64,000 bases of DNA from the IMG/VR virus record IMGVR_UViG_3300031949_001696; one strand, given 5' to 3'. Below, piece after piece: positions 1 through 38,263 of this stretch; position 1 is the stretch's first letter, and every line of letters begins with the position of its first letter. The notes below the pieces were generated by a model. The model did not search any database, was not told the origin of the DNA, and saw only the letters and a program-made list of their open reading frames with translations. Origin of the DNA: a virus (taxonomy: Duplodnaviria > Caudoviricetes). A program made the translations under genes and the position numbers.

Positions 1-938
1 ATCACGCGCGTCGCGATCAGGCGATCGAGATCTGCCGCGCGAGCCTCGCCGGCGTCCTTCGCCGCGACCGGCGAATCGAGTCCCAGCAGCAGCTTCTGTG
101 CCTCGGGCGCCAACGGGCCGTCCATCAGGCGCGCCCAGAGCGCGATCTCGACTTCCTCGAGACGCCGGGACAGCTCTAGCTCCTCGGCTCTGGTCAACAG
201 GTGATGCCCGCTGATCGCCGACGCATAGATCTGCGCGGCGTCCGGCGGCGCCGTTCGAGTGCGGCTATCAGAATGATCTTCGTCTCGCGTGATGCGGGTA
301 CTGTTTGTTCGCGCGGCCTCCGGCGGTGCCGATCGAGTGCGGCTATCAGAATGATCTTCATCGCGCATGATGCGGGTACTGTTTGTTCGCGCGGCATCCG
401 GCGCCGCCGTACGTCCACGGCCAGGATGATCCTCGTCGTCGTCGCGTTTGTTGCGACGAGGCGCCCGCGTCGCGGGTTCCCGCTTCCCGGCCGATCCGGA
501 TCGTGTGCCCCCTGCGGCCGACGCGCGCGTGTGGCGGCGTCCGCGACCGTTCCCTTCCGATCGCAGGAGGCCCATCTTGCGCAACGTGAAGATCTCGGTG
601 TGGAGGGTCCCGCGGTTGACCGGACGGTGCTCCTCCAGCTCGCGGCGGATCTCCATGGTCGACCGGGCCTGGCCATCGGAGAGTAGGCCCAGCACGGCCT
701 CACGGAGCGATCCGCTCGGCGGCTCCTTCGCCGGCGCGGCGAGAAGAAGTGGGGCACCCCGCACGCCACCCGAAGAGAGTTCGGCCATGTCGCCGCCCAG
801 GTCACCCTCGATCGTCGCGAGGAAGTGCCCGTAGTCCGAGGGCGCGAGGCGGCGGAACGCGGAGACGGCCTCGTCGATCCGCGCGCGCTGGTCCTGGCCA
901 GCTCGCAGATGCCGCACGATCGGAGAGTCGTCGCCCAC
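1..938 (-). CDS. Sigma-70 family factor with N-terminal winged-helix domain (partial, runs off left edge)
   Basis: Manual translation from GTG 938 is open to position 1. It contains a wHTH-like segment SLREAVLGLLSDGQARSTMEIRRELEEHRPVNRGTLHTEIFTLRKMGLL, then 23-aa repeats, then QIYASAISGHHLLTRAEELELSRRLEEVE resembling sigma70 region 1.2. Regions 2-4 would lie outside the window. Confidence 0.7.
   Translation of the reverse strand, partial: MGDDSPIVRHLRAGQDQRARIDEAVSAFRRLAPSDYGHFLATIEGDLGGDMAELSSGGVRGAPLLLAAPAKEPPSGSLREAVLGLLSDGQARSTMEIRRELEEHRPVNRGTLHTEIFTLRKMGLLRSEGNGRGRRHTRASAAGGTRSGSAGKREPATRAPRRNKRDDDEDHPGRGRTAAPDAARTNSTRIMRDEDHSDSRTRSAPPEAARTNSTRITRDEDHSDSRTRTAPPDAAQIYASAISGHHLLTRAEELELSRRLEEVEIALWARLMDGPLAPEAQKLLLGLDSPVAAKDAGEARAADLDRLIATRV
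233..432. repeat. About three 69-nt tandem repeats in the sigma-factor linker
   Basis: Unit ...cgagtgcggctatcagaatgatcttc...gatgcgggtactgtttgttcgcgcggc... is repeated and encodes (RTNSTRIxRDEDHSDSRTRxAPPxAA)n on the minus strand. Confidence 0.9.
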
Positions 939-13963: not shown

Positions 13964-14888
13964 CCATCGCGAGCACTTTGGTGGTGCGGTATCTTTGCCG
14001 AATGGCCAAGCGCATCAAGATCGTCGGGAAACGCGAGCCGTGCATCGTGAACACCGGTCCATGCGAGCCGCTGATCGATCCCGACGAAGTCATGCGTGCG
14101 CTAGGAGGCGAGCGAGTGCAGTTCGAGGATCTGTCGCCGCGATCGCAGGCGATCGTGGGAACCAAGCGGCAATAACAGCATGCCGCACAAGGTGAAGTAT
14201 CAGCGCGCGACGCAGATCCCGATGGTCGGCGACGAGCCGCCGCGCAGCATCATCATCGCGTCACTTCCGATTCGCGCCACGTGCTGCTGCGGTTGGGAGG
14301 GGCGGGTCTTTACGTCGTTCGACGGAGATCCGCAACAGCTGGCACGAGACGACTACGGCAGACATCAGGATCGTGTATGCAGCCGACAGCGCCGATGACA
14401 GCTCCAAAAACACAAGAGCCCTGCCGTGGAGAAACAGCGCTCGATAGCTGTCACACGGGGGCTCAAATCGCCGCGATCTGCGGAAACGAGCCCGTCTTGC
14501 GGCTGTGCAATGTCCGGCGCTTCGTCCGTGAAGCTTCGGAAATCTGCCCGATCTGCGGACACGTTCGCGCGCGGTGTCATTATGATAAGTTTTGCTAGAG
14601 AACGTCCTCGATTCCGTGTGCGAGACGCGCCGCGGCTCGATACCCGGATACGGATTGCCTCCACGAACCCTCTGAACCCTCGAACCCTCGGAGTGTGTCT
14701 CAAAACCCCCTCGAAAAATCGGACCTTTTGAGGAAGCTGTCTGGGTTTTGAGGTGACCATTCTAGTCCGCATCGACGGGTACCATTGAACCCTCGAACCC
14801 TCGAACTCCTCGGAACTCGGAACCCTAGTCTTGCCTCCACGGTCGGCACTTTTTTGGACCTGATGGGGAGTGTTTGGTAGTTTCTTAC

Positions 14889-30871: not shown

Positions 30872-31546
30872 CTAGTCCTCGACCCATCGCCGGAGCAGGT
30901 TGGTGTGCGTCTTGGACAACAGATCGACCTCCGGCGTCTTGCCGAGCTGCTTGGCCAGTCGGTGATGAGCGGTTCGGAGGTCGAAGATGATCTCGCGCTT
31001 CGCGGCGTCGCGCACGAGGCTGCGGATCCACGTCACCGCGGCCAGGCGCGTTCCCCTCGTGATTTCTTCGACTCGGTGGAGCGCGGTCGCTGGATAGAGG
31101 ACCGCGCTGCCGGGCGGCAGCTTGATCGAGCGCTCGCCGGTCGGGAAGTCGATCACGAGCTGCCCGCCGTCGTAGTCGGCCGGATCGGACAGGAACAGGG
31201 TGAGCGCGAGGTCGACGCGCATGTCGCCCATGAGCGCGTTGTCCATGTGCGTGCCGTAGCTCATGCCGAGCGTGTAGCGGGAGAACAGCGGCGGATGGAT
31301 CTCTTTAGGCTGCGCCGCGGCCATGAAGAGGCCGTGGTCCCAGAGCAGGTCTTCGAGGAAGTCCTGCATCTTCTCGAGCTGCGGATCGCAGTTGTCTGGA
31401 TCGTCGCTGACCTGCTCGTTACGTTTGACCTTGGCGGCGTTTCCACCCGCGGTGGCGCGGCCGTCCTCGAAGGTGGCCTCGGCCAGCCAGCCGCGAAGGC
31501 GGGCGACGGTGGCTTCGTCGATCAGGTTCTCGATGAGGGTCAGCAT
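30872..31546 (-). CDS. PKHD-type Fe(II)/2-oxoglutarate dioxygenase (YbiX/PiuC-like)
   Basis: FEDGRATAG, YGTHMDN (HxD), TLFLSDPADYDGGQL, LHRV, RLAAVTW. Confidence 0.9.
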   Translation of the reverse strand: MLTLIENLIDEATVARLRGWLAEATFEDGRATAGGNAAKVKRNEQVSDDPDNCDPQLEKMQDFLEDLLWDHGLFMAAAQPKEIHPPLFSRYTLGMSYGTHMDNALMGDMRVDLALTLFLSDPADYDGGQLVIDFPTGERSIKLPPGSAVLYPATALHRVEEITRGTRLAAVTWIRSLVRDAAKREIIFDLRTAHHRLAKQLGKTPEVDLLSKTHTNLLRRWVED

Positions 31547-32458
31547 GGGACCTTTCGTCAGGCGACGGCGCCCTTGATAGCGATCACGAGCGAGCACAGG
31601 TGATCCGCTGGGATGTTTTTCGTTACGAGCGCCGGGACTGCCGCTTGGCAGGAACGGATCGTGCTGGATCGATCGTTGCCCAGAGCCGTCGGTGAGAGTC
31701 GGACCTGGATCGTGGCGGTTCGCACGCTGGCCGCTCCGCGGACCATCCGCCGAAGCGCCCCGCCTGGCTTCTTGATCTCGATCTTGGTCAGCAGGCCCTG
31801 GTCCTTCGACACGTGCTCGGTGATGAGGGCTTCGAGCGCCTGCTGGATGCGATCGATGGTGGTGTCTCGATCGTACGCGTCCGTCGCGCCTGGCGTGCCG
31901 CCGCTCTTGCTGGAGATGATCGAGACGCTTAGTAATAAGTTCACGGCAGGATCTCCTAGTGCCCTGGTGCGAAGGGTCTGCGATCACCGACGCGCAGCTG
32001 CTCGTCGATCTCGTGCTTGTAGATCTCGCGCACGATGTGCCGCACGAAGTCCGCGGCGTTCTCGGCGTGGAAGGCCGGCAGCCTGTAGCGCGCAGTGAGG
32101 GGTACGGGGAAGCCTTCTGCGATCCTGATCGGGATCTTGTTCGGCTCTGCGGGGGTCTGTGTCTCGGGAGCGGGCGAAACGTAGGGAACGATCACTTCGA
32201 CAATGACGTGGTCGCCGTCCGGGCGAAACGTGACTGGTAGCGCGCCGCCAACGCGCACCGTGGGAAGGAAGGCTGCCCAGTGCGCGAGGTCGGCGGCAGT
32301 GAGCTTGGGATCTGCGTCGCGATCACGCGGTTCCGCGAGAGTCACGACTTCCGCATCTGGGGAGTTCACGAAGGCGTCTCCGACTCGCACATCTTGTAGA
32401 CGCGGCCCCATGCCGCTGTCCGCTGTCAGCGCGCGCGCACGGGTACCATTCCAGGTCA

Positions 32459-33988
32459 TTACGCGCCTTTCTGAGCAGTGCGCGGAGCCAATCGCGCTCG
32501 GCCATAAAGCAGTCTCTCAATAGCCGCGCTAATGGCTAGTTTGTCTTTCTGCCAGTTACGAACGGTGTCAGGAGACACGGCCAGAAGATCAGCGGCAGCT
32601 GAGATACTCGCGCCATGAAACGTCGGGCTCGCTGCGGACCGAGCTGCGCGCAGGATGCTGCGCACGCATTCTTTGTCTCCGCATGACTTTCGTTTCGCGA
32701 AGACGCACGGACTGTCGCCGTCCCGTGGTTCAAGCAGCACACTACAGCCTGGACATCGGCGCCCATCAACAAGCTTCGTGGTGGTTCGTACCAGAGAGGC
32801 GTATTTGCTCGCACATGTCCCTTCACCACAGGTCTTTCGCCCTACGAAGTTTTCTAGCCTTTCCCCGGCCCTCCGCTCAATAAGCTCATCACAGATTGGA
32901 CAGTGCCTCGCGACAACCACGGTGACGGCTCTTTTGAGCGCGCTTGCTTTGGTCGCGCAGCCTGCTTTCATGCCGCACGTCTTCCGCCTCATGAAAACGC
33001 ACGGCGTTTCGCCGCCTTTTCGTTTGAGTGGTTTCGTACAGCTCGGGCAGCACCGCCCTGCGATAACCTTCGTAGTCGTCTGGAGGTTGCTTGCGCATTT
33101 TTGGCCGCACGTCGAGCGCTTCGCGAATTCGTATAGCGGTTCGCCCTCTTTCCGCTCGAGCAACTTCTTGCAACTCGGGCGTGGGCAGCGACGCCCCGCG
33201 ACGATCTTCGTCGTGGTGCGTACCATAGACTTGTACTTGCTCACGCACGCCTTATCACAGCACGTGGCGCGTTTGGAAAACCACGTCAGGCTTTCCCAGG
33301 CCCTCCGCTCAAGCACCGCGTCACAGCTTGGACAACAGCGTCCCGCAACAACCTTCACGGCGGGTTTTTGTGCGGCAACCCACGCAAAAGCGCACTTACG
33401 ACTGCACGTCTTTCGCTTCACGAACCTGTGCTGCGCTTCGCCTTCCTTCTGCTTGAGCGTTTTTCTACAACTCGGACTCGGACAGCGGCGACCGGTAACG
33501 ACCTTCGTAGTCGTCCTGAACTTGCTCAGGCACTCGTCTCGGCCGCACGTCTTCCGCTTCGCGAATGACCACGTCTTCTCACCCTCTTTTTGCCTGAGCA
33601 GCTTCTTGCAGCTCGGACAGCGGCGTCCAACGACGATCTTCGTCGTGGTCCTCACCGCGGACAAGAGTTTGGCCCCGCAGCCCTCTTTATTATGGCCGCA
33701 CGTCTTCCGCTTCGCGAACGCAGACAGTGACTCGGCCTTTTTTTGCTTGAGCAGCTTCTTACAACTCAGGCAACGGCGACCGACGACGATCTCGGTGACA
33801 ATTCTTTTCGCCGCGCCAAGCTGATAGACGCACGTGCGATCGCACGTCTTTCTTTTTGCGAAGTCACACGGCTTCTCTCCGTTTTTGCGCTTGAGCTTCT
33901 TCTTGCAGCTCTCACAACGGCGCCCTGTGACATCCTTCGTAGCGATCAGTGGCGCAGTGAGCTTGGAGCGGAGGGAGGAGAGCTTCAC
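32459..33988 (-). CDS. Nine-repeat Cys4 zinc-finger-array protein with C-terminal HTH (start could be 34081)
   Basis: 9 x [K(I/V)VxGRRCxxC..L.(R/Q)K.GExxxxF.KRKTC..C], then FHGASISAAADLLAVSPDTVRNW; GGAGG before GTG 33988. Confidence 0.8.
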   Translation of the reverse strand: MKLSSLRSKLTAPLIATKDVTGRRCESCKKKLKRKNGEKPCDFAKRKTCDRTCVYQLGAAKRIVTEIVVGRRCLSCKKLLKQKKAESLSAFAKRKTCGHNKEGCGAKLLSAVRTTTKIVVGRRCPSCKKLLRQKEGEKTWSFAKRKTCGRDECLSKFRTTTKVVTGRRCPSPSCRKTLKQKEGEAQHRFVKRKTCSRKCAFAWVAAQKPAVKVVAGRCCPSCDAVLERRAWESLTWFSKRATCCDKACVSKYKSMVRTTTKIVAGRRCPRPSCKKLLERKEGEPLYEFAKRSTCGQKCASNLQTTTKVIAGRCCPSCTKPLKRKGGETPCVFMRRKTCGMKAGCATKASALKRAVTVVVARHCPICDELIERRAGERLENFVGRKTCGEGTCASKYASLVRTTTKLVDGRRCPGCSVLLEPRDGDSPCVFAKRKSCGDKECVRSILRAARSAASPTFHGASISAAADLLAVSPDTVRNWQKDKLAISAAIERLLYGRARLAPRTAQKGA

Positions 33989-34070
33989 ACGCCCTCCCAA
34001 AGCTCGGCGATCTGCCTCGCGGTGAGTACGGCGGCGCGTTTCACGAACTCGCCACCAAAGCCATTCCAGC

Positions 34071-35573
34071 TCACCGCACACCTTCTTGAGTGGTGCGCGG
34101 AGTCGGGCGTGCTCGATTACAAAGGTCTTTCGGCTGGAGGGACTTCTCGATAGCCGTGTCGATAGTCATTCCACAGCTCCGCCAATTATGAATCGTAGAG
34201 CTTGTCACACCTAGAAGTGCAGCGGCAGCTGAGACGTCCGTCCCATGAAACAGTTTCTTATACTGACACTCTTCATCTCGACATAACTTTCGTTTTGCGA
34301 AACTGCTCGCGCTCTCGTTATTCCGTTGTTCAAGCAGCTTTCTACATCTCAGGCATCGCCGCCCAGCGATGACCTTTGTAGTGGTGCGCACCCTGGATTT
34401 ATTCTTACGAACGCATACTTCATCACCGCACGTCGCTCGTTTTGCAAAAGCACTCGGACTTTCCCCGGCGCTCTGCTCAAGAAGCTCAGCGCAGATTGGA
34501 CAACGGCGCCCTGCGACGATCTTCGTGGTAGTTGTGTGTGCCGCTCCCAGCAGGACGGCACACTCACCGCCGCATGTCTTTCGTGCCGCGAATGCACTTG
34601 GCGCCTCCCCCTTTCTTGGTTTGAGTAGCTTCGTACAACTCGGACAGCGGCGCCCGACGACAACCTTCGTGGTCGTCAGGAACCTATACACACATCGTTT
34701 TTTACCGCACGTTTTCCGCACAGCGAACGCGGCTACGGGCTCGCCCTCTTTTCGCTTGAGCGACTTCCTACAACTCGGACAGCTTCTCCCTGCGACGACC
34801 TTCGTGGTGGTCAGCACTTCGGCCAAGTGTTTTGCTGCGCAGCCCGCTTTCTTGCCGCACGTCTTTCGACTCAAAAAGTCATTCCGTGACTCTCCTTCTC
34901 TTCGCTTCAATGCTTTTTTGCAGCCGGGTGCCAGACAAAAACGCGCTGGATCGCTCTTCGCCCAGGTCGCGGATAGCAGGCTGCCATAACATTTCTCCCC
35001 GCACGTCTTCCGTCCCGCGAAGGCGTTTAGCGCCTCGCTCTTTCTTCGCTTGAGCAGCTTCCTACAACTCGGACAGCGTCGCCGCGTGACGGTGCGAACA
35101 ACTCCGCCGCTGTGAATGACATGTTGGTGCCAGCTCACGCACTTCTTTCGACCACACGTCTTCCGTCTTGCAAATGAGCTTAGCGACTCGCCTTTTTTTC
35201 GCTTGAGCAGCTGCTTACAACTTGGGCAACGTCGCCCCGCGACGACCTTGATGGTGGTCCTTGTCGCCTTGCTAAGTTTTGCCGCACAGCCTGCTTTATG
35301 ACCGCACGTCTTCCGCCGCGCGAAGAAAAAAGGCGATTCGCTCTCCTTTCGCTCAAGCACTTTGTCGCAGATCCGACAACAACGCCCCGCGACGATCTTG
35401 GTAATGAACCTTTTCGCCATGCCCAGTAGGGCCGCACAGCCCGCTTTCTTACCGCACGTCTTCCGACTTGCGAAGTTACCGAGCTGCTCTCCCTCCTTCC
35501 GCTTGAGCACCTTGCCGCAGACCAGGCAACGACGCCCTGCGACGATCTTGAAGGAAGAGCGTTGCGCCATCAT
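34071..35573 (-). CDS. Nine-repeat Cys4 zinc-finger-array protein with C-terminal HTH (paralog)
   Basis: Same repeat x9, then FHGTDVSAAAALLGVTSSTIHNW. Confidence 0.8.
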   Translation of the reverse strand: MMAQRSSFKIVAGRRCLVCGKVLKRKEGEQLGNFASRKTCGKKAGCAALLGMAKRFITKIVAGRCCRICDKVLERKESESPFFFARRKTCGHKAGCAAKLSKATRTTIKVVAGRRCPSCKQLLKRKKGESLSSFARRKTCGRKKCVSWHQHVIHSGGVVRTVTRRRCPSCRKLLKRRKSEALNAFAGRKTCGEKCYGSLLSATWAKSDPARFCLAPGCKKALKRREGESRNDFLSRKTCGKKAGCAAKHLAEVLTTTKVVAGRSCPSCRKSLKRKEGEPVAAFAVRKTCGKKRCVYRFLTTTKVVVGRRCPSCTKLLKPRKGEAPSAFAARKTCGGECAVLLGAAHTTTTKIVAGRRCPICAELLEQSAGESPSAFAKRATCGDEVCVRKNKSRVRTTTKVIAGRRCLRCRKLLEQRNNESASSFAKRKLCRDEECQYKKLFHGTDVSAAAALLGVTSSTIHNWRSCGMTIDTAIEKSLQPKDLCNRARPTPRTTQEGVR

Positions 35574-37726
35574 CGTGTCCTCGACCGCTCATTCCCGCGC
35601 CCTGCGCGATCGATGTGCTCGATCCACTCCGCGGGGATTTTACCTGCCTGCACGGCTTTCTCCGCACGCGCCCGTAGCTCCGCACGCCGCTCCTCAAACT
35701 GCTTCCAGTTCAACAGGACGAGTTCGGCCTCCTGCTCCTCAAAGATCTGTCGCCGCGGCTTCCTCTCCGGCTGCTCAGCGCCGCAGTGTTTGCACTTGGT
35801 GCACGACCACGCGATCACCGCTGGACATCCGACACAGTCTTTGACGCGCGGTTCAACGTCTGCGTTAGGGCGCTCCCCCGCGCCATGCTCAAGAGACCAT
35901 GGCCAATCTTCGCCGGGAACGTGCAGAAGGCGCTCACAGTTTGCGCCGTGATCGAGCACGATCTTTTTGGTCGGTCCTTCTGCGCGTAGCACGCGGGCGA
36001 TCATCTGCATGAATCTGGCGAGGCTCTTGGTGGGACGCGCGATGATGACTGCGCCGAGCTCTGGCAGATCCCAGCCCTCGCAAAGCACGTCGACGTTGCA
36101 CAAGACTTCAAGCTCGCCGCGGCGAAACCTGCCGATGAGCCGTTCGCGCTCAGTCGCGTCTGTCTCACCGTCGAGATAAGCCGCCTTGATCCCAGCCTTC
36201 CTGAACTGCGCGGCGATCCTCTTCGCGTGCTGACGGGTCGCACCAAACACGAGCTTGCGAACACTCGGAGCCCACTTGATGGCCTCCTTGACGACGTGGC
36301 CGATCAGTAGCGGCCGATCCACCGCGCGACGGAGCGACGACGACGCGTAATCGCCGCCGATCGTCTTTGCACCTTTGAGACCCTTCGCGAGTGCTGCAAT
36401 AATCTTGGCATCTGCATGGAGCGTGACAGGATCACGCAGGTAGCCGGCGGCATACAATTCGCTGGGCTTGGCGGCGACCTTCAGAACCTGAAAGAAGTCG
36501 CCGAGACCACGACCATCGAGACGGCACGGCGTGGCCGTCAAGCCGAGCGCGTCGGCACGCGGACACCTCGCCGCAATCGCCTGATACGAATCGGCCATCG
36601 CGCGGTGCGCCTCGTCGAAGACGATCAGGTCGATGTCTTCCGGCAGCTCACGGAGGCTGATCGTCTGCACGCTGCCGATCTGAACACGTGCGTCGAGGTC
36701 CACGTGCTCGGGGTAGAGCTGCTCGTACTTCGCACACTGGACGCCGCAGCGCACGCCAAGTTTCACGAGTCGAGCGCGCGCCTGACCGATCAGCTCAGTC
36801 CGATGGGCCAGCCAGAGCACACCACGCCAACGCTTTGTCCGCGAAATGAGAAGTGACGCAATGACGGTTTTTCCAGATCCTCCGGGAGCGACCAGGAGAA
36901 CGCGACGATCTTTCGCGAGCAGCGGGTCCAGCTCGACGACGGTGCGCTCCTGATACGGACGACGATCTAGTTCCTGTGAAATGCCTGCGGCAAGTCGAAA
37001 GGCCGCTACGCGTTCGGCAGGCAGCGCGTACGGTGAAGCAGCTGCTGGATAAGCACGGGAGGCGGCTAGATCATCTGTAGTGATCCGGGCGAACGCCGGT
37101 TGCATCACCGAAGACTTCTCGATGGAGCTATCGCGCCAGAGCGCCGCACACATCGGCATTCGATGTCCCGTATAAGCCAGGACGGACACGAGCCGATGAT
37201 CTTGCGGGGTTCGCCTGTCAAGCAATTCCACGCGGCCCGCCAGTATCGGATCTGGGATCCCCCCGAATGTTCCGTGATCGTACTGCTCGACGACATCACG
37301 TCCATAAGAGAACGTGAGCATGAAGACCCCACGACGAACGATCGCCGAGTAGACGTCAACCACATTCTCGACATCACGTGTGATCGAGCCGCAAAGATCC
37401 AAGTTGATCGCGTCAACCCCGTGCAGCTCCTTGAGCGGGGGTCTCTTGAAAAGATCGGCGTGCACAACTAGATCCGCTCCCGCCTTGGTCGCGGCCCGAC
37501 AACATGCTGGGTCGCGATCGACGGCAATCACCACAGCCGTTGGCATGTGCCGACGAATGCATGCGATCTCTTCAGCCGGCTCGGGACCGGCAACCATAGC
37601 CAGCCGCCATTTGGCATGGTGGACTCTGTCCCGACGCCGAAGAAACGCTTTTACCGCGAGCCAGTGCTCTTCGCGGACAAAGCGCTTGGCATCGGTGCTC
37701 TTGGAAGCGTCAAACTTACGAGTCAC
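35570..37726 (-). CDS. SF2 (RadD/YejH-like) helicase with N-terminal methyltransferase-like domain and C-terminal Zn ribbon
   Basis: APGGSGKT, DEAH, GLTATP, EGWDLP, QMIARVLR, CVGC...CKHC. N-terminus VIAVDRD...HADLF...INLDLCG is Rossmann-like. Confidence 0.85.
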   Translation of the reverse strand: MTRKFDASKSTDAKRFVREEHWLAVKAFLRRRDRVHHAKWRLAMVAGPEPAEEIACIRRHMPTAVVIAVDRDPACCRAATKAGADLVVHADLFKRPPLKELHGVDAINLDLCGSITRDVENVVDVYSAIVRRGVFMLTFSYGRDVVEQYDHGTFGGIPDPILAGRVELLDRRTPQDHRLVSVLAYTGHRMPMCAALWRDSSIEKSSVMQPAFARITTDDLAASRAYPAAASPYALPAERVAAFRLAAGISQELDRRPYQERTVVELDPLLAKDRRVLLVAPGGSGKTVIASLLISRTKRWRGVLWLAHRTELIGQARARLVKLGVRCGVQCAKYEQLYPEHVDLDARVQIGSVQTISLRELPEDIDLIVFDEAHRAMADSYQAIAARCPRADALGLTATPCRLDGRGLGDFFQVLKVAAKPSELYAAGYLRDPVTLHADAKIIAALAKGLKGAKTIGGDYASSSLRRAVDRPLLIGHVVKEAIKWAPSVRKLVFGATRQHAKRIAAQFRKAGIKAAYLDGETDATERERLIGRFRRGELEVLCNVDVLCEGWDLPELGAVIIARPTKSLARFMQMIARVLRAEGPTKKIVLDHGANCERLLHVPGEDWPWSLEHGAGERPNADVEPRVKDCVGCPAVIAWSCTKCKHCGAEQPERKPRRQIFEEQEAELVLLNWKQFEERRAELRARAEKAVQAGKIPAEWIEHIDRAGRGNERSRTR

Positions 37727-37761: not shown

Positions 37762-37938
37762 TCATTCCGCGCCCTTGAGGCTCTTGAGCCCGAGCACCAC
37801 CATCTCGGTGGTGACGCTCGCAATCGTGTGCGGATAACCCCGCTCCTCGACAAGCTGCACGACTTGGCGATGCTGCTCGGGGTGTAGTCGCACGTACGTG
37901 ACGATGCGGTCGTCGCGCTTCTTCTTTGCACGAGCCAT
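37762..37938 (-). CDS. Small RHH-like regulator (58 aa, not in ORF track)
   Basis: MARAKKKRDDRIVTYVRLHPEQHRQVVQLVEERGYPHTIASVTTEMVVLGLKSLKGAE. Confidence 0.6.
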   Translation of the reverse strand: MARAKKKRDDRIVTYVRLHPEQHRQVVQLVEERGYPHTIASVTTEMVVLGLKSLKGAE

Positions 37939-37968: not shown

Positions 37969-37987
37969 TTGCAATATGTTATTGCAA
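37969..37987. promoter_or_regulatory. Palindromic operator overlapping a -35-like TTGCAA of the island operon
   Basis: TTGCAATA-TGT-TATTGCAA perfect inverted repeat about 30 nt upstream of the RHH ATG. Confidence 0.6.
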
Positions 37988-38263
37988 CCTGTAGCAGCTG
38001 GAGTCCGCGGAGGGTTGCGTCTTGGGCAGTACGTAGGGGACGATCACCTCGACGACGACGTACTCACCGTCCGATCGAAACGTGACAAACAGCGCGCCAC
38101 CCACGCGCACGGTCGGAAGGAAGGTTGCCCAGTGCGCGAGGTCCTGCGCATCGAGATTGGGTTCGTCGGAGGTCGACACGTTAGGCGGCGACCTCGGCCA
38201 TCCAGCCGCGGAGGCGGGCGAGGGTTGCGGAGTCGATCAGGTTTTTGATGCAGATCGCCATGA

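Follow-up and report, generated by a model that had tools for sequence, protein, structure and literature searches.

The window, i.e. the entire 64,000-nt stretch of phage DNA analyzed here, carries two adjacent genes whose products (P0001 and P0002) each comprise nine tandem Cys4 zinc-finger-like units, followed by a C-terminal helix-turn-helix (HTH). With a probability of roughly 0.6, we consider P0001 and P0002 to be nuclease-free members of a mostly metagenomic family of tandem Cys4 arrays that forms the DNA-binding part of homing-endonuclease-type proteins. The two are most likely fast-evolving proteins that bind long DNA sites without cutting them. To our knowledge, the tandem zinc-finger modules of phage homing endonucleases have been recognized only recently. 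The present locus provides the longest natural arrays of our analysis (9-10 fingers), built from a finger family for which there is no database model.

Gene layout and synteny of the array locus

The genes and elements of the locus, listed from the operon's upstream region through to the genes beyond the arrays, are the following:

37969..37987, no strand: perfect palindrome TTGCAATA-ACA-TATTGCAA, read directly, upstream of the operon's first gene
37762..37938, minus strand: P0159, 58 aa, ribbon-helix-helix (RHH)-like by its translation, the operon's first gene
35570..37726, minus strand: SF2 helicase gene, 718 aa (ResIII/Helicase_C, phrog_16)
34071-35573, minus strand: array A (P0002, 500 aa), ORF and translation confirmed
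34251-35537, minus strand: nine Cys4 fingers of array A (residues 13-441)
34134-34247, minus strand: HTH tail of array A (roughly residues 443-480)
32459-34081, minus strand: array B (P0001, 540 aa), ORF and translation confirmed
32648-33925, minus strand: nine Cys4 fingers of array B (residues 53-478)
32492-32626, minus strand: HTH tail of array B (roughly residues 486-530), also modelled as a structure
31956..32459, minus strand: 167-aa ORF, coupled to array B through TAATG
30872..31547, minus strand: 2OG-Fe(II) oxygenase (PKHD type), probably 224 aa, start MLTLIENL

The helicase gene ends and array A begins within a shared ATGA, and array B starts from a GTG codon, with an 11-nt overlap with the end of array A. 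Both arrays would be made from one translationally coupled operon that encodes the RHH protein, the SF2 helicase, array A and array B. The helicase protein begins with an N-terminal stretch of ~250 aa without assignment, followed by the SF2 helicase and a C-terminal Cys4 ribbon. P0159, for which a Pfam search returned no match, is a putative RHH protein by its sequence pattern, and a counterpart of equal size occupies the same position in the P0004 contig and in the related locus L002. Its place before the RHH gene makes the palindrome a candidate operator and promoter region. At the opposite end, the first residues of the 167-aa ORF (MTWNGT...) are the leader of a third array gene that is sited here in relatives; the remainder of the ORF is unrelated, and family searches gave no match for it. 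The 2OG-Fe(II) oxygenase gene adjoins the helicase module in L003, too.

Crude GC3-based gene picking favored an antisense ORF (32655-33824, 389 aa) over the sense frame of array B. We rejected this ORF because the sense frame encodes a Cys4 pattern common to hundreds of clusters and shows an overall dN/dS of 0.35-0.39 against two orthologues, i.e. purifying selection on the reading frame. That antisense ORFs stay open in array B, L001 and L002 is explained by the Lys/Arg/Glu-rich sense strand, which leaves few antisense stop codons. CRISPR arrays are also present within the 64-kb window.

In one clade of giant soil phages, the SF2 helicase that precedes the arrays is conserved. Wherever the upstream gene could be identified—in the window, L001, L002, the P0004 contig, L003, the P0016 contig and L006—it was the orthologous helicase, its stop codon overlapping the following start codon; in L003 and L006, the helicases that immediately precede the array genes are 54-62% identical to that of the window. 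Such persistent adjacency, together with the stop/start overlap, would suit helicase-linked site selectors, i.e. origin-binding or loading factors that bring the helicase to sites on phage or host DNA and act in replication or recombination rather than in regulation. We consider this role unlikely. All loci belong to a single viral clade, so that adjacency may be mere inheritance, and fingers were absent from all 80 IMG/VR loci whose helicases fall into the same PHROG but are more distant. Moreover, the arrays evolve much faster than the helicase, and related loci bear one, two, three, four or five array genes—a range that also speaks against the suggestion in the first-pass annotation that the two proteins act as a pair. 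Finally, genes derived from homing endonucleases are expected beside conserved genes anyway.

The finger unit and its wider family

The nine units of each protein are 45-52 aa long, and 18/18 units fit C-x2(or x4)-C-x20-C-x3..6-C, with the consensus GRRCPSCxKLLKRKxGExxxxFAKRKTCGxKxC...RTTTKxVx. R2, C4, C7, F22, R25, C28 and C32 do not vary among the 18 units, and all 72 ligand cysteines are intact; the second and third cysteines are 20 residues apart, and the third-to-fourth spacing is 3 in 5/18 units and 4-6 in the others. The first-pass annotation had described exactly nine units per protein, each with its own four-residue patch. The 18 patches it listed match the translations letter for letter and the count of nine holds for P0001 and P0002, but nine is not a constant, as orthologues carry 6, 8, 9 or 10 fingers (B-type 9, A-type 9-10, C-type 6 or 8; the array B orthologues lie in L001 and L002). 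Among the 18 units, the patch is the most variable segment, with entropies of 3.15 and 2.93 bits at its third and fourth positions. The helix after the fourth cysteine, which had likewise been described as variable, indeed varies almost equally (2.0-2.7 bits), and in the wider family many positions outside the patch vary as much as the patch itself. Many patches stay the same in the corresponding finger of orthologues (e.g., SLSA, KTWS, SPCV) and do not stem from a small alphabet; nothing specific speaks for the TALE-like recognition code considered in the first-pass annotation.

Both proteins are as strongly basic as originally claimed (P0001: K+R 130, D+E 44; P0002: K+R 119, D+E 33; net +86 each), with Lys and Arg making up 24% of residues and the basic scaffold residues being conserved. 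A charge of +86 fits non-specific binding as well, and the proteins might coat or condense DNA, in a histone-like or protective manner, with the fingers as nothing but a rigid scaffold. This appears rather improbable, given that finger-specific patches are kept across orthologues, that the C-terminal HTH is a sequence-reading domain, that relatives pair the same module with site-specific nuclease types, and that the genes reside in an early or accessory operon behind a putative RHH regulator.

Searching 1.84 billion proteins with a profile of the 18 units returned 655 protein clusters at E<=1e-3, and the repeat is far beyond chance; no Pfam model covers the finger unit. The family, represented by profiles A1 and A2, is defined by tandem C-x2(4)-C-x20-C-x2..6-C units in which a conserved E precedes and F/Y/W follows the patch, and R lies three residues ahead of the third Cys, all of which were found in 18/18 units of P0001 and P0002. 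Among 462 fingers of relatives, R was kept in 450, E in 457 and F/Y/W in 462, the latter two being demanded by the extraction pattern and R being free. The best 149 representatives carry 2-8 tandem fingers. A tblastn search with P0002 gave no match in 50,697 phage records and 72,556 plasmids, and pattern scans with P0001 revealed no relative in the IMG/VR and GTDB genomes covered.

Within these best 149 relatives, Pfam matched HNH in 29 and HNH_3 in 11 proteins, as well as C-terminal DUF559, Vsr and MTES_1575 domains in 4-5 each; further C-terminal partners were AP2, Mom, and tails of the HTH_17, MerR or sigma-70 region 4 type. Classing the same set by regular expressions indicated 45 HNH proteins (about 30%), at least 6 Vsr-like proteins and at least 25 with HTH tails, and some relatives end, nuclease-free, in the same HTH tail as P0001 and P0002. 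One Vsr-fused relative is a lone gene amid the tail genes of a phage contig, like free-standing homing endonucleases. P0001 and P0002 themselves contain no nuclease domain recognized by Pfam, PHROGs or NCBIfam, their only portion outside the fingers being the HTH tail of ~50 aa. Since the same finger is fused to HNH, Vsr/DUF559, AP2 or an HTH tail, we take it to be the DNA-binding module of homing-endonuclease-type proteins. The original proposal of a modular nucleic-acid-recognition array thus gains strong indirect support from the fusions (HNH, HNH_3, Vsr/DUF559, AP2), the shared HTH tail and the fast-evolving patch helix, but loses its fixed pair and its exact nine.

Structure models of the finger (pLDDT 81; a second model >90) show a knuckle, a short helix over the patch and a long helix that starts from the fourth Cys. 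A treble clef takes ligands 1-2 from a zinc knuckle and ligands 3-4 from a helix start; the secondary structure of the models fits this arrangement, and a treble-clef-like fold is probable. Every match from the fold comparisons is weak (Z<5, Foldseek E>0.06), including the best solved one, YacG, to which the zinc-free models aligned at Z 2.9-3.2 and an rmsd of 3.6-4.6 over 39-43 residues. The other neighbors, i.e. phage HNH, LAGLIDADG, NinG, DUF2116 and DUF559 proteins, are equally to be read as weak matches and may partly reflect a generic shape, HNH cores being treble-clef-like. With both models, Foldseek against the PDB retrieved nothing at E<=0.001.

The terminal HTH that had been proposed from the letters alone is borne out by a model of the tail (pLDDT 90), which adopts a beta-hairpin followed by three helices. 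For a MerR/Xis-type HTH, we looked for a short strand, then a helix-turn-helix with (E)AAxxLGVSxxTxxxW, and a profile match. Residues 48-93 of the tail model align weakly to many MerR-family N-terminal domains, Xis and RacA (Z 3.0-3.9), and Pfam matches of the tail to MerR, HTH_23, HTH_28 and HTH_29 all fall below the curated cut-offs; HTH_17 was matched in 3 and MerR in 2 of the 149 relatives.

Treble-clef Cys4 fingers, e.g., in YacG and in ribosomal proteins, have protein or RNA partners, and tandem- and direct-repeat searches of the window yielded, CRISPR arrays aside, no periodic nine-unit candidate target in the DNA. Both observations would be in line with the arrays being repeat scaffolds for RNA or protein, e.g., for a structured RNA or for host proteins. 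Such a role is very unlikely, as the domains fused to the finger in relatives either cut or bind DNA (HNH, Vsr/DUF559, AP2, HTH) and the tail resembles the DNA-binding HTHs of MerR and Xis.

Comparison with known zinc-finger systems

The remark in the first-pass annotation that long prokaryotic finger arrays are rare was overstated. Phage homing endonucleases with zinc-finger DNA-binding domains in repeated form have been published (Barth et al. 2023, PMC10448857), as has CapR of the Vibrio cholerae satellite PLE, a nuclease-free derivative whose repression is sequence-specific (Netter et al. 2021, PMC8096241). The arrays resemble the CapR/DUF723/DUF4397 domains of T5orf172 homing endonucleases in being Cys-ligand fingers of the DNA-binding part of phage homing endonucleases, and in being arranged in tandem as "beads on a string" whose number shifts through recombination between repeats (PMC8096241; PMC10448857). 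They differ in their motif (CxxC-20-C-3..6-C with invariant E, F and R, as compared to CxxC-24..26-CxC in CapR), in the nucleases of their relatives, which are HNH and Vsr/DUF559 rather than T5orf172, and in reaching 9-10 fingers versus six in the example drawn in the paper; in addition, they carry the HTH tail and follow a helicase gene in sets of 1-5 paralogues. DUF723 (PF05265) and DUF4397 (PF14344) were unlisted at E<=1 for P0001 and P0002, and neither was among the 25 most frequent of the 35 families that the 149 relatives matched.

I-TevIII needs both of its tandem zinc fingers for DNA binding (PMC1865063), and a modular binding region is common to the arrays, I-TevIII and I-TevI, the latter joining a Cys4 finger to an extended segment and a terminal HTH (PMC1865063 and references therein). 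Unlike the arrays, these enzymes include a nuclease and no more than one or two fingers, which follow other motifs (CX2CX12-13HX3C in I-TevIII), and the I-TevI finger is a distance ruler rather than the reader that the array fingers are proposed to be. As for EDxHD/Vsr-like homing endonucleases such as I-Bth0305I (Taylor et al. 2011, PMC3239194), the likeness lies in array relatives that end in a Vsr/DUF559-type nuclease, whereas P0001 and P0002 are without one.

Small treble-clef Cys4 families—YacG, DUF2256, DUF2116, zf-FCS/TRASH and the LigA finger (PF03119)—share the ligand order, a similar spacing and the second ligand pair at a helix start with the arrays. Their profile and fold matches are weak and none covers the whole unit; unlike the array fingers, they are single-copy and have other roles. 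For TRASH/YHS and zf-FCS, the 20-residue Cys2-Cys3 spacing fits C-x19..22-C, with the final C-x3-C present in only 5/18 units; there was no Pfam match in P0001 or P0002, and zf-FCS was matched in 1/149 relatives. For PF03119, P0001 sums to 34.1 bits with its best stretch spanning only profile positions 1-18 of 27, P0002 reaches 24.1 bits, i.e. below the 25.8-bit cut-off, and LigA chains match the profile at E>5.

Membership in the C2H2 family was rejected, as the arrays have four Cys ligands, 45-52-aa units and a TTTK linker as opposed to Cys2His2, ~28 aa and TGEKP; sequence-profile matches in the PDB to C2H2 proteins and others extend over only 10-20 residues of the knuckle and were rejected as homology. 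TALE membership was likewise rejected, as were Ogr/Delta-type fingers, for which there was no Pfam match. What the arrays have in common with C2H2 arrays and TALEs is the likely working principle only: small tandem modules, a conserved linker, few fast-changing surface residues and recombinational change of repeat number. Cys4 rather than Cys2His2 ligands and units of 45-52 aa versus ~28 or 34 set them apart, and at the sequence level only the CPxCGK knuckle is shared.

Proposed role, selection and turnover

Each ~48-aa unit would most likely bind one zinc via its four invariant cysteines and present the short helix E-xxxx-F-x-x-R with the variable residues at exposed positions. Conserved Arg/Lys residues and the fixed linker RTTTKxVxGRRC may hold successive fingers along the DNA, with the MerR/Xis-like C-terminal HTH adding an anchor, comparable to the DNA-binding domain of I-TevI. 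A protein of nine fingers and an HTH would have a very long binding site, where arrays without a nuclease would act by occupancy, be it as repressors, site blockers or target selectors.

The dN/dS comparison that had been suggested for the variable positions gave 1.15-1.68 in the patch versus 0.21-0.31 in the scaffold, with only 2-5 silent and 10-18 replacement changes per pair, from three sequences in all, underlying the patch values; a signal like that of positive selection can also arise when fingers undergo gene conversion with one another. Replacement changes per site amounted to 0.30 in the patch versus 0.15 elsewhere. The locus represents a nuclease-free form maintained by selection and multiplied into cassettes, in which the residues of the short helix appear to change faster than silent sites.

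A far-reaching extension would see the arrays as a natural, evolvable DNA-reading system, in which each finger reads a short subsite via two or three exposed helix residues and retargeting proceeds by patch mutation and by shuffling, deletion or duplication of fingers—a virus-encoded equivalent of C2H2/KZFP or TALE arrays that would take part in an arms race against hosts or competing elements. We regard this as speculative and on balance doubtful. If fingers did read one subsite each, the arrays would be a tractable model for the evolution of protein-based DNA specificity in viruses, and a candidate scaffold for engineering that is compact and programmable. If they do not read per subsite, they would still be a clean case of homing-endonuclease parts reused in giant phages.

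Whole arrays as well as single fingers are gained or lost between close relatives, including near-identical phages from different soils. Among the natural variants, finger 7 of array B has the patch TPCV in the window and KLYK in L001 and L002, and array A takes an eight-finger form in sequencing run X5 and a 10-finger form in L001. Many orthologous contigs occur across 14 sequencing studies, with no RNA data among the matches listed. The cassette would thus turn over quickly in this one clade of giant soil phages, with recombination between repeats adding and removing arrays and fingers. Frequent presence/absence and indel variation is also what decaying homing endonuclease remnants would display that had lost their nuclease and had no function of their own; in line with decay are the missing nuclease domain, a frameshift of array A in L001 and a frame change at the start of array B. 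We consider decay highly improbable in view of the intact ligand cysteines, the low scaffold dN/dS and the full-length, translationally coupled ORFs. Indeed, divergent lineages, namely L003, L006 and at least 25 representatives, have retained HTH-tailed arrays without a nuclease.

Operon layout and architecture of the two arrays

Both array genes of the window belong to a minus-strand gene run in which adjoining genes are joined by overlapping or abutting stop and start codons:

37969-37987, perfect palindrome TTGCAATA-ACA-TATTGCAA, preceding the 58-aa ribbon-helix-helix-like gene
37762-37938, minus, 58-aa ribbon-helix-helix-like protein, ahead of the helicase gene
35570-37726, minus, 718-aa protein comprising a ~250-aa N-terminal part, an SF2 helicase (ResIII/Helicase_C, phrog_16) and a Cys4 ribbon
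34071-35573, minus, array A (P0002), 500 aa, its start overlapping the helicase stop as ATGA
32459-34081, minus, array B (P0001), 540 aa, its GTG start overlapping the array A stop by 11 nt
after array B, minus, 167-aa ORF, joined to array B by TAATG
after the 167-aa ORF, minus, 2OG-Fe(II) oxygenase

Other genes of the window include a Cas12f/TnpB-like one accompanied by CRISPR arrays, one for a DNA methylase and one for a tyrosine integrase. Third-position GC of the helicase and both arrays (32459-37726) is 0.60-0.68, below most other picked ORFs of the window (mostly 0.70-0.90), and plus-strand GC skew falls to -0.15 over 34-36 kb. Direct repeats of 79% identity (31472-32312 and 38024-38262) lie on either side of the helicase-array block in swapped order, one belonging to the 167-aa ORF, the other to the start of the oxygenase gene. 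A 66-aa ORF at 37979-38179 is partly paralogous to the 167-aa protein, and the whole resembles a rearrangement scar around the cassette.

The repeat architecture described in the first-pass annotation was confirmed: each protein holds nine Cys4 finger units of 45-52 aa with four invariant Cys, all 18 reported four-residue patches (the hypervariable stretch between a conserved Glu and Phe) are correct, and both proteins are strongly basic (net charge +86 each). In both arrays, units follow the pattern C-x2 or x4-C-x20-C-x3..6-C, with an Arg, the Phe and a second Arg likewise invariant and the Glu and a Leu nearly so, and successive units are connected by a conserved linker, RTTTKxVxGRRC. The proposed terminal helix-turn-helix (HTH) was also borne out for the final ~55 residues of each protein, the last finger plus tail being predicted to form a beta-hairpin and three helices (pLDDT 90). 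Matches of the tails to Pfam HTH_23, MerR and HTH_28 were all sub-threshold; structural neighbours of the tail model were MerR-family N-terminal domains, Xis and RacA (Z 3-4), two Xis chains sharing 45-50% identity across 22-24 residues.

Compared with its orthologues in the related metagenome loci L001 and L002, array B has a dN/dS of 0.35-0.39 and zero changes at ligand Cys; its sense reading frame is real. Antisense ORFs of 381-389 aa are open over array B in all three loci (window 32655-33824, plus strand; L001 5905-7056; L002 4087-5232). We rejected these as a second gene, since the composition of the sense codons, rich in Lys, Arg and Glu, explains their openness. The usual array-gene start (M/V-SWNG..., as in the related protein P0006) occurs at 34074 (34020-34081, minus) as (V)SWNGFGGEFVKRAAVLT, which differs from P0006 in a single one of 18 positions (F for S, position 6). 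This segment is in a different frame from the array B body and meets a stop after 29 codons, while the long ORF begins at GTG 34081 with an unrelated 22-residue N-terminus. An assembly slip was rejected because L001 has the same arrangement; the GTG is a candidate start of array B, and a frameshift is possible.

A probable DNA-binding finger family of homing-endonuclease-type proteins

Pfam, PHROG and NCBIfam hold no model spanning the finger unit of either protein; the sole match over cut-off, PF03119 on P0001, is a sum of partial hits that reach no further than position 18 of the 27-position profile. When 1.84 billion representative proteins were queried with a profile built from the 18 units, 655 clusters scored at E<=1e-3, among them 126 at E<=1e-10 and 14 at E<=1e-30, and the top representatives had 2-8 matched stretches apiece. 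Among the best 149 relatives, C-terminal ends matched HNH (29) or HNH_3 (11), DUF559, Vsr and MTES_1575 (four to five each), AP2, Mom and zf-His_Me_endon (single members each), and in a few cases HTH_17, MerR or sigma-70 region 4. Classing the same set by regular expression gave 45 HNH proteins, at least six Vsr-like ones and at least 25 with a DF[YH]G..L....A.ILGVS tail, which the window arrays share. One Vsr-fused relative stands alone in a phage contig, flanked by tape-measure and distal tail genes, in the manner of free-standing homing endonucleases. The C-terminal nucleases and HTH domains of the relatives and the location of this member argue that the finger, present in repeated copies, serves homing-endonuclease-type proteins as an accessory DNA-binding module; P0001 and P0002 are nuclease-free forms of it.

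A comparable plan is known from CapR, a nuclease-free CxxC...CxC finger akin to the region through which T5orf172 homing endonucleases contact DNA; CapR binds DNA specifically, represses phage capsid genes and loses binding upon mutation of its four Cys (Netter et al., PMC8096241). CapR, DUF723 or DUF4397 fingers, often repeated, occur in 87% of T5orf172 homing endonucleases, and recombination between repeats alters their number (Barth et al., PMC10448857). I-TevIII depends on its two zinc fingers to bind DNA; the finger of I-TevI, by contrast, acts as a spacer (PMC1865063). The window arrays seem to share the plan of these CapR-type proteins, but their finger belongs to another family, one without a database model; its relatives partner with HNH and Vsr rather than T5orf172, and the window arrays are longer, carry the extra MerR/Xis-like tail and, unlike CapR-type systems, occur as multi-gene cassettes in giant soil phages. 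From the nuclease and HTH fusions of relatives, P0001 and P0002 are likely DNA-binding arrays, as the earlier proposal of a modular recognition array implied; a recognition code is not supported. For the question of how viral tandem zinc fingers read DNA, the locus is an unusually clean natural setting.

AlphaFold2 modelling from an alignment of 96 diverse units (pLDDT 81) predicted a knuckle, a short helix and a long helix starting just before the fourth Cys, a layout repeated in the model of last finger plus tail (pLDDT >90). Patch positions 2-4, the invariant Phe and the two residues that follow it lie on the short helix. Since the Phe must be buried, helical geometry would leave exposed patch positions 3 and 4 together with the residue two places beyond the Phe; these are the most variable positions across the 18 units (3.15, 2.93 and 2.10 bits, respectively). 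Fold matches were weak: YacG, a treble-clef finger (Z 2.9 and 3.2); small phage proteins, HNH and DUF559 proteins and a DUF2116 protein in BFVD (E>=0.066); and parts of HNH, LAGLIDADG and NinG proteins in the ESM Atlas (TM 0.6-0.66 over 41-48 residues). A treble-clef-like finger, a type common in phage nucleases, would agree with them, though the similar shape of the HNH core may inflate such matches.

Variation in finger number and patch

A fixed count of nine fingers and action as a pair were not supported either. B-type arrays have nine fingers in three of three orthologues, but A-type arrays have nine in the window and ten in L001, where the gene is frameshifted, and C-type arrays, encoded directly after array B in relatives, have six or eight. 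Array genes number three in L001 (A, B, C), two in L002 (B, C) and three on the P0004 contig; the window lacks the third, of which the MTWNGT leader alone persists, on the unrelated 167-aa ORF. In L001 (3981-5658; 98% identical), array A has an additional first finger and the frameshift falls between fingers. In P0010, which comes from a different sample, the first finger at this site is a hybrid; counting the window's form, this makes three different recombination products at one site. The helicase-array genes are also covered, at 85-99% identity, by contigs of other metagenomes (soil, sediment and permafrost; four studies). Three differences appear among them: array A short of one finger length in frame (144 nt skipped, 9 inserted), array B with a 270-nt gap that keeps the frame and, in two runs, the helicase joined straight to array B. 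These differences were read from assembled contigs at an 85% likeness threshold, where repeat-induced chimeras are possible.

The patch is the most variable segment of the 18 units, the helix after the fourth Cys being a close second. Between orthologues, replacements reached 0.30 per site in the patch versus 0.15 in the rest of that region of fingers (Fisher p=3e-4; pairs non-independent), and Nei-Gojobori dN/dS, from small counts, was 1.15-1.68 for the patch, 0.21-0.31 for the scaffold and 0.47-0.82 for the post-Cys helix. Because of these small counts and evident gene conversion (the first half of array B finger 7 is replaced relative to L001 and L002), diversifying selection on the patch is suggested. 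The retention of the patches SLSA, KTWS, SPCV, SPKT, RLRG and RRDL among orthologues argues for roles specific to individual fingers.

Linkage to the helicase

In the more distant locus L003, four arrays (5, 3, 5 and 5 fingers) come immediately after an orthologous helicase (62% identity); five do so on the P0016 contig, and a single 7-8-finger array does in L006 (54% identity). Among these loci, the helicase is far better conserved than the arrays. As fingers are absent from 80 of 80 IMG/VR loci with more distant phrog_16 helicases (<=42% identity), the linkage belongs to one viral clade. It may be functional, or may merely reflect the habit of homing-endonuclease-derived genes of adjoining conserved genes. 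Residues 1-250 of the window's helicase protein (36977-37726) had no family match and are absent from the L003 (462 aa) and L006 (458 aa) orthologues; a language-model search gave weak leads (scores <=0.88) to unnamed viral proteins and methyltransferase-like clusters. Ahead of the L003 helicase, a 56-aa Cys-rich zinc-ribbon-like protein (2789-2959) replaces the ribbon-helix-helix protein of the window.

At 14664-14690 and 14787-14812 of the window, ~120 bp apart in an intergenic stretch, a common 8-bp unit (CGAACCCT / GAACCCTC) forms two short tandem arrays, each with roughly three copies; they may be a binding-site cluster or origin-like element.
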